A stretch of DNA of 64,000 nt, taken from NCBI GenBank assembly GCA_965199495.1, contig CBDASK010000003.1, positions 4,544,001 through 4,608,000 on the forward strand, given 5' to 3'. This DNA is from Abditibacterium sp. Its GTDB lineage: Bacteria > Armatimonadota > Abditibacteriia > Abditibacteriales > Abditibacteriaceae. Every line of letters begins with the position of its first letter. Position 1 is the stretch's first letter. Below, piece by piece: positions 61,022 to 64,000 of the stretch. The position numbers and the translations under genes were made by a program. Below the pieces are notes generated by a model. That model saw only the letters and a list, made by a program, of their open reading frames with translations. It was not told the origin of the DNA and searched no databases.

Positions 61022-61450
61022 TAGGAGTTACGCAGTTGGTTCCAATTTGTCATTTCGAGCGCCGGGTGCCCCCTGGGCGGCAGAAATCTTTCGGCCCCGC
61101 GCCAGCGGAAGTCCTAGATAACCCCGTGTGCAAGTTCTATTCACGTTCAATCTCTCCCTCCTTTGTCATTCTGAGCGAAGAGAGGCACGAACGAAGTCGA
61201 AGAATCCACAGGTTGCGATGGAGTTTGACGTTCATCGCGAGTGATACGTCATGGATTCTTCGACTTCGTTCGTGCCTCTCTTCGCTCAGAATGACAAGGC
61301 GAGGAGCTAAAAACAACTTGCACACGGGGTTAGATAGCTTTGAAAGCGAAAACCGATTGAACGGCGTTGCCGCGCGGGCGCAAGATTTCTGCCGCCCAGG
61401 GGGCACCCGGCGCTCGAAATGACAAATTGGAACCAACTGCGTAACTCCTA
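61022..61450. mobile_element. Nested MITE: outer TIR TAGGAGTTACGCAGTTG (TSD AATGA) containing an inner ACCCCGTGTGCAAGTT-TIR element (61121-61330, TSD TAGATA)
   Basis: Four concentric inverted-repeat layers and two distinct TSD pairs are directly readable in the sequence. Confidence 0.85.
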
Positions 61451-61589
61451 AATGAGAATTTAAAATCATAACAAGTGAATTTCGCAATTTCGCATGAAAC
61501 ACCCTGCCCGCGTAATTCCCAGCGATAACCAATCCAAGACCTCCGCTCACTTGCCCGCCTCGTCTATTCGACCAATACTCCCCTGTGAC

Positions 61590-62042
61590 GTGATTTTTCT
61601 CTCGCCGCGCGACTGGCTCGCGCAATGGCCGCGCCGACTGCAATGGTTTGCCGTCGCTTTGCTGTTGCTCGCCAGCACCGCGCAGAGTTGGCACGTCTGC
61701 GCGATGGGCAGCCACGCCCTGTGCGCCGGGCCGATGGACGACGTGGCTATGCGTTACGTCACGGTGCGTAACGCCGACGGTTCGCCCGGCCCAGTCGTGT
61801 GCGCGGAAACTCCGTCACCGCCCAAGATTCGCGGCAACAGCTTAAATTCGCGGCCCGCCGCCAACGGAGCGGTGGACTGTCTGGCGATGTTGCTGCAAAC
61901 CATGCCTTTGCAAGCGGGCGTGCCGTTTACGCTCGAACTTCGCGAAACCTCGCGCACGATTTACGCGACGCGCGCCGAAATCAAACCCGCCTTCGCTTCG
62001 CCGCTCGCGCTGCGCGGGCGCGCTCCACCAGCGACTTGTTGA
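61590..62042 (+). CDS. DUF2946-like secreted leader protein ending in an RAPP ribosome-arrest motif
   Basis: Hydrophobic signal segment, HVCAMGSHALC...MDDVAM, C-terminal LRGRAPPATC*; start uncertain (GTG 61590 or ATG 61494). Confidence 0.7.
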   Translation: MIFLSPRDWLAQWPRRLQWFAVALLLLASTAQSWHVCAMGSHALCAGPMDDVAMRYVTVRNADGSPGPVVCAETPSPPKIRGNSLNSRPAANGAVDCLAMLLQTMPLQAGVPFTLELRETSRTIYATRAEIKPAFASPLALRGRAPPATC

Positions 62043-62090
62043 ATTCCGCACTCCGCCGCGTTTTCGCGGCTCAACCCAATTCAATAGGTC
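62033..62090 (+). promoter_or_regulatory. RNA stem-loop pairing the leader stop-codon region with the RBS region of the redoxin gene
   Basis: GACTTGTTGAATT (62033-62045) pairs with AATTCAATAGGTC (62078-62090): 13 bp including 2 G-U pairs; inner hairpin GCCGCG-TTTT-CGCGGC. Confidence 0.7.
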
Positions 62091-62093
62091 TCC

Positions 62094-62765
62094 ATGAATC
62101 TTTCCATTTCGCGTCGCACTGCGGCGCTTTCGACAGCGTTTGCCGTCGCCTCTCTCGCGCTCGCCTTGCCAGCTTCGGCGCACAACATCAGCAGCAAAGG
62201 TTACGACCAACTCAAAAGCGAAACTGCAAACTTCGCCCATACCCAAAGCGCGCCCAGCGCTCGCATCAACCAGAAATTGCCGTCGTTCGCGGTCAAAACC
62301 GTGTTCGGCAAAGGCTTCACCAACGCTTCGTTTCAGGGCAAAATCGGCGTTTTCGTTCTCGCTGATACGCAGTGTCCCTGCGTTCAAGCGGTCGAGATGC
62401 GCCTCAAGAATCTGAGCAAACGCTACGGAAAAAACGGCGTGCGCATCGTTTATGTGTTCCCCAAACCCGGCGAACGCGCGCTCGATGTCGCGCGCTTTAT
62501 GCAGAATCACCAGATTCCATTTCCCGCCGTGGTTGACCAGAATCAGCGCTTTTATAAAATGCTCGATGGCAAATGTTCGAGCGAGGTTTACGTGACCGAC
62601 AAAAAAGGCGTCTTGCGCTATCACGGTCGCGTGGACGACTCGACGTTCGATCCCAAGGCCGTGCAAAAGCGCGATCTGGAAGCGGCGGTTGTGCAAATCG
62701 CGCGCAACCAAACCGTTAAAAATCCCGAAGTGCCCGCGATGGGCTGCGCCATTCCGCGCCTTTAA
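62094..62765 (+). CDS. Secreted redoxin (AhpC/TSA, thioredoxin-fold) protein
   Basis: Signal peptide ending ASA-H; DTQCPCV, LRYHGRVDD, C-terminal PAMGCAI. Confidence 0.85.
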   Translation: MNLSISRRTAALSTAFAVASLALALPASAHNISSKGYDQLKSETANFAHTQSAPSARINQKLPSFAVKTVFGKGFTNASFQGKIGVFVLADTQCPCVQAVEMRLKNLSKRYGKNGVRIVYVFPKPGERALDVARFMQNHQIPFPAVVDQNQRFYKMLDGKCSSEVYVTDKKGVLRYHGRVDDSTFDPKAVQKRDLEAAVVQIARNQTVKNPEVPAMGCAIPRL

Positions 62766-62846
62766 CCATCGAATTTGGAACGACGAGAAGGCGATTCTTA
62801 ATTGAATTTCGTTTTTCTCGGCGCTCATCTCCAAAACCGTAAATTA

Positions 62847-63636
62847 ATGAAAAATTTCATATTTTCAACGCCCGCTCGCGGTGCGTTTCCCCGTCGCGCG
62901 TCCGCATTCACCCTTGTGGAGTTGCTGGTTGTCATCGCGATTATCGCCATTTTGGCGGCGATTCTGTTTCCCGTTTTCGCCCGCGCCCGCGAAAACGCGC
63001 GCCGCGCCAGTTGCCTAAGCAATCTCAAACAAATCGGCATTGGCTTCATGCAATACACGCAGGATTACGACGAGCAAGGCCCGATGACTTCGATGTCCGG
63101 CGGCATGATGGCGGGCGGCGCCTATTCATGGACGACTTCAACGCAGCCCTATATCAAGAGCGTGCAGATTTTCCGATGTCCATCCGACAGCGCCGCGCGT
63201 TGGAACGCGCCCAACTTGCCGCCCGCCGCCCCGCCCTACACCACGAGTTACGTGTTCAACTCGTGGTTCGCGCCCGACAAAAAAGACCCGGCAACGGGCG
63301 CGGTCAATGGTTACTCGAACCTCGCCAAAGTGCAAGAACCTTCGCGCTCGATTATTCTGTCGGAAAAAGCCGACTTGACAGAGGGTTCGATGCTCGCCGA
63401 CGCCGACCATTTTCATCCGATGTATTGGGGCGCCACGCCCGAAGAAACTTCGGCGATGATGAGCGGTCTGGGACGGCGCCAACAATGTACCCGCAGAACT
63501 GGCGGTCAAGCGCCATCTGGAGGGCTTCAATAACCTCTACGCCGACGGCCACGCCAAGTGGAATCGTTTTGAGCAACTCACCAGTTACCCCAACGCCGAT
63601 CCGGTCGTGGCCGAAGGCAATTTTCGCCCGCGCTAA
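62847..63636 (+). pseudogene. DUF1559/H-X9-DG prepilin-like gene split by a frameshift near 63468 (pseudogene or sequencing error)
   Basis: [15 protein letters not shown]-terminus; the conserved [17 protein letters not shown] end lies in the +1 frame (63469-63636). Confidence 0.75.
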
Positions 63637-63640
63637 ACCG

Positions 63641-64000
63641 ATGAAAAATTTCAAATCTCGGCAATTTCGACAAAAAGCATTTACGCTCGTGGAATTGCTC
63701 GTCGTCATCGCAATAATCGCCATTCTCGCGGCGATCCTGTTTCCCGTTTTCGCCCGCGCTCGCGAAAACGCGCGCCGCACTTCTTGTTTGTCCAATCTCA
63801 AACAAATCGGCTTGGCCTATATGCAATACACGCAGGATTACGACGAGCATTATCCTTTGGCCTCGCAGCCAACGGCGCCGACTTCGTGGACGGAAACCGT
63901 GCAGCCTTACGTCAAAAACTTTCAAATCTTCCGTTGCCCCAACGACAACAGCCAGAACTGGACGGCGCCGCTCGCCAGTCCCAACTTCGAGCAGCAGGGT
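63641..64000 (+). CDS. Second DUF1559 prepilin-like protein (runs off the window)
   Basis: [57 protein letters not shown]. Confidence 0.9.

Follow-up and report, generated by a model that had tools for sequence, protein, structure and literature searches.

A candidate arrest-peptide leader and start-occluding stem ahead of a redoxin and DUF1559 operon in Abditibacterium sp.

Introduction

The window analyzed here is a stretch of 64,000 nucleotides (nt) of an Abditibacterium sp. genome (assembly GCA_965199495.1, contig CBDASK010000003.1, positions 4,544,001 to 4,608,000). Near its end, a small leader open reading frame (ORF) ending in Arg-Ala-Pro-Pro (RAPP) and a few more residues stands upstream of genes for a redoxin and for prepilin-like proteins of the DUF1559 family. 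An earlier note, made from the letters alone, proposed that a ribosome stalled at RAPP frees the redoxin start from a stem and that the locus is a new metal-responsive system. Do the leader and the stem form a switch, what might such a switch sense, and what place do the DUF1559 proteins have in it? Comparison of sequences across relatives indicates that the leader and the stem are likely a real and conserved translation switch, driven by an arrest peptide in the manner of CruR and CutF.

CruR (Bp2923), located before bfrG in Bordetella pertussis, is the prototype of DUF2946 (PF11162). Its CxxC and RAPP motifs are separated by 45 residues, a spacing that is required, it is relieved by copper (Cu), and AhpC_TSA genes are listed among the partners of cruR operons (Roy et al., 2022, PMC9426467). 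Arrest by CruR was demonstrated in a later study, in which RAPP and RGPP are described as interchangeable, versatile and robust arrest cores (Fujiwara, 2025, PMC12992588). CutF likewise has 45 residues, a distance that its authors read as putting the metal site where SecY opens to the periplasm.

Conservation of the stem over the redoxin start

For the leader and the stem, the letters are as the earlier note had read them. The leader ends in RGRAPPATC-stop, with its Pro-Pro codons at 62025-62030 and RAPP at residues 144-147 of 150, while folding confirmed a stem of 13 pairs (two of them G-U) with AGGT at 62086-62089, just ahead of the redoxin ATG and its CPC-type (QCPC) protein. The fold has a z-score of -2.06, with 4 of 200 shuffled sequences equally stable. 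The energy of the window's duplex, -15.4 kcal/mol, is reached by 2.8% of 1142 same-strand gene pairs in the genome, a background whose gene starts are crude calls. Upon blocking the footprint of a stalled ribosome, the predicted mean unpaired probability of the 3' arm rises from 0.02 to about 0.6.

The same pairing was assessed at 16 loci, using a fixed window of 3-24 nt after the first Pro codon against the 22 nt before the next start. Cognate duplexes averaged -13.7 kcal/mol vs -6.8 kcal/mol for swapped partners, 15 of the 16 loci surpassed their own shuffles at p<0.05, and the observed pairing in an 8-locus subset was the best of 40320 permutations; these p-values are overstated because the genomes are related. 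This pairing signal is strongest at the Pro-Pro codons and vanishes 12 nt or more upstream. Blocking the footprint also cuts the computed cost of opening the start region at every one of the 16 loci. The stem is kept across Pro-to-ATG distances of 45-277 nt and across three types of first gene, namely redoxin (10 loci), DUF1559 (4 loci) and HMA (G013 and G019). Among nine held-out loci, six reached -10.4 kcal/mol or lower vs 16.3% of the 1142 background pairs. A stem shielding the initiation region within reach of the stalled ribosome, as expected of a CutF-type system, was thus computed for 15 of 16 loci and for those six held-out ones.

Two two-sided changes in the stem were found, in G004 and L155, and substitutions 62087 G>A and 62085 T>C in contigs of relatives turn both G-U pairs into Watson-Crick pairs, the former (U-G to U-A) being seen in relatives from three runs. 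Three and two of the 13 pairs are broken in G004 and L155, respectively, mostly terminal ones. These script-made pair counts cover four loci; a MAFFT alignment of seven stem regions misregistered the arms. The substitutions in relatives abolish AGGT, which the earlier note had taken as the ribosome-binding element. This is a weak Shine-Dalgarno (SD) element (-3.6 kcal/mol; the anti-SD was located in the genome's 16S), and 5 of the 16 loci have no SD-like element. AGGT was rejected as the key element for these reasons.

Palindromic repeats or long inserts occupy the stem loop at L054 (G010), L159 and L161 with the basal pairing intact, and at L161 the insert itself lengthens the stem.

The leader family and its relation to DUF2946

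The leader lies directly upstream of the redoxin gene in 9 of the 12 other genomes of the genus, ending in RAPP or RGPP. Of the other three, G005 and G006 carry the redoxin without the leader, and in G008 the contig ends at the redoxin gene. A 16-sequence profile matched 18 of the 27 genomes of the family, covering all six genera. Among 58 family representatives, drawn from matches in a 1.84-billion-protein library and including several input sequences or their clusters, all have the C-terminal motif (RGPP in 34, RAPP in 23, RSPP in one), and all have a Cys located 45-47 residues before the Arg of this motif (46 in the window's leader). The C-terminal motif, the spacing and the stem are all conserved. 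In the alignment of 16 leaders, the invariant columns include His35, Cys37, Cys97-Leu-Ala, Arg144, Pro146 and Pro147.

The likely metal ligands, judging from this alignment, are the invariant His35, Cys37 and Cys97 together with the near-invariant Cys71. They replace those of the earlier note, which had pointed to HALC and MDDVAM; the latter is confined to the window's leader and three close relatives among stored proteins and was rejected as a key element. Of 82 distinct members, 50 have a mid-domain CxC and 48 have a His at most five residues before the anchor Cys, and both features are missing from the window's leader. Four Cys between WHVC and CLA is the commonest count (35 of 82), and the window's leader also has four despite having no CxC. 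The earlier note was right that the canonical CxxC is missing, since CxxC occurs at the anchor Cys in only two of the 82 members, the window's leader not being one of them.

A hidden Markov model search against DUF2946 (PF11162, cut-off 23.7 bits) gave no match for the window's leader and none in its genome, and only 3 of 40 leader homologues matched, all below the cut-off (14.5-21.8 bits). The window's leader had no match in Pfam or NCBIfam either. Its nearest ESM clusters include DUF2946 ones, with a similarity of 0.94-0.95, and homologue P0022 bears a UniRef label starting with 'DUF2946 domain-containin', of unconfirmed origin, yet has no Pfam match. The RAPP end, the spacing of about 45 residues between Cys and RAPP and the position at the head of a putative operon with metal genes are all features of DUF2946 leaders. 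From its sequence, the leader would work like a DUF2946 leader while falling outside the family on two criteria, the PF11162 cut-off and the CxxC motif.

At L166 (G014:C6, ~610876-611278), a frameshift divides a leader of the family, a clear stem is lacking, and the DUF1559 gene of the DHFHP subfamily (see below) behind it is intact. This locus is possibly a decayed switch.

Comparison with known arrest-peptide systems

Like CruR, the window's leader heads an operon, has a hydrophobic N-terminal segment, carries RAPP three residues before the stop and has a Cys about 45 residues upstream. It differs by a single Cys (CLA) where CruR has CxxC, by WHVC and the CxC of its family, by its score below the PF11162 cut-off and by a short gap with a start-occluding stem, whereas CruR has a 162-bp Rho region. 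The cargo is also distinct (redoxin and pilin-like proteins vs a TonB transporter), as is the phylum (Armatimonadota vs Proteobacteria). With CutF-cutO of Rhodobacter capsulatus (Ozturk et al., 2023, PMC9973294), the window's leader would share export, a stall that melts the stem of the next gene and a distance of about 45 residues from metal site to stall. CutF, however, combines CxxxC with a proline-rich end and responds to Cu by switching on, while the window's family has RAPP or RGPP, no CxxxC and often an SD-free stem. ApdA and ApdP (and SecM) offer a comparable RAP/P core with Pro in the P and A sites and a SecM-like opening of a stem (Morici et al., 2024, PMC10951233), but ApdA and ApdP precede protein-localisation genes whereas the window's leader has conserved Cys and His residues and precedes envelope redox and metal-family genes.

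The class described by Fujiwara (2025, PMC12992588) similarly consists of small exported RAPP or RGPP ORFs before metal, thioredoxin and DUF1559 genes. Thioredoxin-domain genes are named there downstream of RAPP-type leaders, and the source data of its Fig. 4B place DUF1559 among 30 enriched downstream classes (112 RAPP vs 68 AAPP, adjusted p 1e-31). The source data also hold leaders annotated as DUF2946 and four other RAPP leaders of Abditibacterium utsteinense. DUF1559 had no matches in the main text of that study, a WHVC/WHIC leader was not found among the covered entries of its list (it may stand in the remaining lists), and the covered parts of the paper contain no analysis of the stem or of DUF1559 subfamilies. 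Searches of main texts, with most subscription journals outside their coverage, returned nothing joining DUF1559 with copper or with Abditibacterium, and nothing related for 'arrest peptide' with Armatimonadota; DUF1559 by itself led to four papers on planctomycetes. Conservation gives good support to the logic of arrest and occluding stem put forward in the earlier note. Its reading as a 'new system' finds no support, as RAPP leaders before AhpC/TSA or thioredoxin-domain genes were already described and DUF1559 is an enriched downstream class in published source data. The mechanism class and the association of RAPP with DUF1559 being known or published, the surprise is limited. What is new here is a family of leaders that lack CxxC and score under the DUF2946 cut-off, along with its tie to a single DUF1559 subfamily, which in other parts of the phylum stands behind other leaders.

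Proposed mechanism and its alternatives

In the mechanism that we propose, the ribosome would stall at RAPP, Pro residues occupying its P and A sites, and by covering the 5' arm would free the redoxin start, so that the operon would be translated for as long as the stem is held open. Binding of a metal to the exported Cys/His domain would release the stall and let the stem close. Cys97 would then be separated from the peptidyl-transferase centre by about 46 residues, the position given to the metal site in the CutF paper, and the cargo would be envelope proteins in varying combinations (redoxin, DHFHP-type DUF1559, DJ-1/YHS, CusF, HMA and DUF4198). By analogy with known arrest peptides, stalling at the leader's RAPP is very probable, and gating of translation by the stem is probable as well. 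That the signal is a transition metal is somewhat favoured by us, while the whole chain, with a stall that keeps the operon on until metal releases it, has about an even chance of being correct.

Several observations weigh against this reading. Besides the missing CxxC and anchor-proximal His, the lack of PF11162 matches over the cut-off, the redoxin genes that have no leader, the SD-free loci and the crude gene starts of the background, locus G012b lacks such a duplex (-3.5 kcal/mol, p=0.88). Weak duplexes (-4.7 to -5.5) were obtained for three of the nine held-out loci, including the one in G014, whose leader is frameshifted, and the related genomes are not independent observations. An operon that is on in metal excess would agree equally well with CusF and HMA as cargo and with the efflux pumps that follow other leaders, the first gene encodes a thiol-redox protein and fits disulfide sensing, and both stalling and metal response are deduced from sequence and analogy.

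These last points bear on the sign and the nature of the signal. CutF, with its SD-shielding stem, is switched on by Cu (PMC9973294; bioRxiv 10.1101/2025.02.05.636593), and if metal binding prolonged the stall in the same way here, the operon would be on in metal excess and serve detoxification or buffering. The CusF and HMA cargo would suit such a role, as would four other leaders of the genome that precede RND/TolC efflux genes, but we consider this direction rather unlikely. RAPP is a strong core that arrests by default, Cu relieves the arrest of CruR (the prototype with RAPP), and families for uptake or capture (DUF4198, PepSY_TM, CbiMQO, ZIP) recur in the operons of relatives, which is why we favour an operon that is on when metal is scarce. 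Among metals, CusF would favour Cu, while DUF4198 and the CbiMQO genes of relatives would favour zinc (Zn), nickel (Ni) or cobalt. DUF4198 proteins bound Ni best in one study (PMC12537917) and Zn in another, which leaves more than one candidate metal. In another reading, unlikely though conceivable, the signal is the redox state of the envelope or the capacity for secretion. Disulfides between the conserved Cys residues of the leader would fold the chain, pull it out of arrest and so control a thiol-redox protein. The redoxin is the first gene at 10 of 16 loci, AhpC/TSA and DsbD-N genes are recurrent neighbours of the DUF1559 subfamily, the window's leader shares the commonest count of four Cys between WHVC and CLA, and an RAPP-type arrest peptide with a Cys pair is reported before a thioredoxin-domain gene (Fujiwara, 2025, PMC12992588). 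A redox sensor would nevertheless leave aside the invariant His adjacent to Cys37 and the metal-family cargo (CusF, HMA, DUF4198), the two loci where an HMA protein comes first do not fit it, and no Sec or YidC gene follows the leader in the loci examined.

The two remaining explanations give the stem a secondary role or none. In CruR, regulation goes through Rho-dependent termination (Roy et al., 2022, PMC9426467), and a stalled ribosome that blocks Rho, with the stem as a secondary matter, would agree with the excess of C over G from ~61940 to 62200 (e.g., 34 C vs 19 G). This bias is a raw count, however, the gap between leader and next gene is only 51 nt in the window and 15-75 nt in 14 of the 16 loci, and the distance from stem to start codon is fixed, making such polarity quite improbable. 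Finally, there may be no regulation at all, the leader being a plain small exported protein whose RAPP and hairpin arose by chance, given that a 6-frame scan of the genome yields dozens of RxPP-ending frames by chance and that 16% of ordinary gene pairs reach -10.4 kcal/mol. The conservation of motif, spacing and locus-specific complementarity, along with the avoidance of RAPP in ordinary proteins (Fujiwara, 2025, PMC12992588), renders this very improbable indeed.

If the proposed switch is true, co-translational metal sensing extends to a leader family without the CxxC held to define it, and the role of the fixed spacing of 45-47 residues is put to the test. One DUF1559 subfamily would also be singled out as a candidate for metal binding from a very large family of unknown function, and about 27 candidate non-RAPP Pro-Pro arrest peptides would be at hand.

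A DUF1559 subfamily and other Pro-Pro leaders

The DUF1559 proteins linked to the leader share a D-H-F-H-P-x-x-W-type motif (the DHFHP subfamily), present in 2 of the 33 prepilin-type genes of the genome, both in the window's operon. A profile of the C-terminal domain, with nine candidates scored per genome, matched 60 of 401 genomes of the phylum at E<=1e-35, mostly once, and the subfamily is mostly single-copy among tens to hundreds of DUF1559 paralogues. Of the 71 matches listed, we examined the flanks of the 40 highest-placed ones not already studied (L197-L236) and added L080 and L085, for a total of 42 loci. A constant link of the subfamily to RxPP leaders was rejected, as a strict filter retained only L213 of L197-L236 and neither L080 nor L085. 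A broad filter (a stop at most 450 nt away, Pro-Pro among the final 14 residues, at least two Cys and a hydrophobic segment) retained 28 of the 42 loci vs 6 of 63 other DUF1559 loci, these controls being 73 candidates minus ten dropped for a short flank or lack of the motif; the figure of 28 is post hoc because the filter was set after the neighbourhoods were viewed, the same filter being used on the controls. In the window's own genome, the broad filter retained 1 of 33 genes, the window's DUF1559 genes being too far from the leader to count.

The 28 leaders come from 19 of 27 genera and 7 of 9 families. By phmmer they fall into six clusters, none of them significantly matching the WHVC profile (best E 0.013). 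Most have C-terminal Pro-Pro motifs other than RxPP (LTPP, PIPP, ETPP and others), which the search made by Fujiwara does not include. They pair with their own downstream start at -12.5 vs -8.0 with those of others, and at -11.4 vs -8.2 with one leader per genus (p 2e-4). Families found in 54 sampled nearby ORFs were AhpC/TSA, DJ-1, DUF4198, HMA, PepSY_TM, CbiM/Q, ZIP and DsbD-N. Five of the six control matches are RAPP or RGPP leaders before DUF1559 genes outside the DHFHP subfamily (L084, L103, L105, L146, L153), and four of these leaders have a canonical CxxC. Links to leaders therefore extend to other DUF1559 genes.

We offer, as a tentative and on balance doubtful proposal, that the DHFHP-type DUF1559 is a dedicated metal-capturing pilin-like protein of Armatimonadota, wired across the phylum to several unrelated exported Cys-rich leaders, most of which would stall at new non-RAPP Pro-Pro motifs and open a start stem. 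The CxxC-less WHVC leader would be the Abditibacteriaceae version, sensing by a His/Cys site.

In some families, DsrE-like and FmdE genes come after the DHFHP-type DUF1559, as at L197 and L199 (first gene after DUF1559; the DsrE-like match is weak at L199) and at L235.

Operon genes and features of the locus

The features of the locus are collected in Table 1. An alternative in-frame ATG at 61494 would lengthen the leader to 182 residues; its GTG aligns with the ATG starts of relatives' leaders. Differences between the leader and its G011 counterpart fall most often in third codon positions (13/10/24). Export is predicted from the conserved hydrophobic N-terminal helix. The AlphaFold model is weak (mean predicted local distance difference test, pLDDT, 60; predicted template modelling score, pTM, 0.30), helix 15-40 being its best-predicted part. 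The RAPP motif is of the ApdA/ApdP class, where arrest also depends on upstream residues.

Table 1. Coordinates and evidence for the features of the leader operon and for further leaders of the genome.
Feature	Position	Strand	Remarks
Leader ORF, 'WHVC..CLA..RxPP' family, CruR/CutF-like candidate arrest peptide	61590..62042	+	150 residues from GTG; ORF list, orthologues, family alignment
Hydrophobic N-terminal helix, predicted export signal or membrane anchor	61632..61688	+	Conserved hydrophobic stretch
WHVC (His35, Cys37), candidate ligands	61689..61700	+	Invariant in 16/16 aligned leaders
Cys71	61800..61802	+	Near-invariant; first Cys of CxC in most relatives, single Cys here
Cys97 of CLA	61878..61880	+	46 residues N-terminal of RAPP Arg; positional counterpart of CruR CxxC
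RAPP, putative arrest motif	62019..62030	+	First Pro (62025-62027) in P site, by stall position of ApdA/ApdP and CruR
Stem 5' arm	62033..62045	+	Spans leader stop codon; folding, pair table
Small inner hairpin in stem loop	62055..62070	+	Minimum-free-energy and centroid structures
Stem 3' arm	62078..62090	+	-16 to -4 of redoxin start, includes AGGT; folding
Redoxin of the AhpC/TSA fold with QCPC, a C-terminal GC and a His right after its predicted signal peptide	62094..62765	+	Exceeds the cut-offs of PF08534 and PF00578
First DUF1559 prepilin-like gene (DHFHP subfamily)	62847..63636	+	PF07963 and PF07596; frameshifted near 63470
Second DUF1559 gene (DNFFP variant of DHFHP subfamily), intact	63641..64000	+	Extends to window-equivalent 64378
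Leader L071, G000:C3	463653-464297	-
Leader L072, G000:C3	481884-482360	-
Leader L073, G000:C3	494549-495184	+
Leader L074, G000:C3	2055458-2055937	-
Leader L075, G000:C3	4052456-4052887	+
Leader L076, G000:C3	4312360-4312791	-

The redoxin motifs are conserved across the genus. In most genus orthologues (window 62094-62200; L001-L009), the predicted signal peptide is directly followed by a His (ASA-H, ALA-H), and the DUF4198 partner has the same arrangement. By sequence, this N-terminal His could be a metal site like those in PMC12537917.

The earlier note had described tandem DUF1559 genes. Both genes are indeed over the PF07963 (N-methylation motif) and PF07596 (DUF1559 domain) cut-offs, but the first is 5 nt shorter than its G004 orthologue at the frameshift, lies in two reading frames and has thereby lost its H-X9-DG C-terminal part. 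One X1 run contig, spanning 62965-63775, has the same letters at this position; X1 is possibly the source sample. The second gene scores 18.1 for HX9DG (cut-off 19), and the AlphaFold model of the DUF1559 domain is weak (pLDDT 34). Beyond the window, a DJ-1/PfpI-YHS fusion is followed by a CusF-family lipoprotein-like gene.

The leader-redoxin-DUF1559 order is retained in part. The leader-redoxin pair recurs in the genus as given above, while DUF1559 is found in only 10 of 16 leader operons, being missing from G011, G009, G001, G007, G013 and G019 within the DNA fetched. DUF1559 is an optional cargo of the leader operons. The other partners are DJ-1/YHS, CusF, HMA, DUF4198 and one unannotated protein, and the metal link drawn by the earlier note is strengthened by CusF, YHS, HMA and DUF4198 genes, which lay beyond what that note could cover.

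A nested palindromic repeat, whose core has ~130 BLAST matches in the genome, fills window positions 61030-61450 between an M16 peptidase gene and the leader; in G011, a regulator and three other genes take its place. Rfam returned no family at the stem, and its three sub-threshold matches at 61163-61298 correspond to this repeat. The promoter scan returned no sigma-70-like site directly upstream of the leader on the + strand, and terminators were not in excess.

The genome has at least six further hydrophobic RAPP or RGPP leaders (L071-L076). The genes behind them encode TolC/RND efflux components (four leaders), a TonB receptor with ExbB and a cupredoxin-like protein, and the last codons of several of these leaders pair with a downstream GGAG element.

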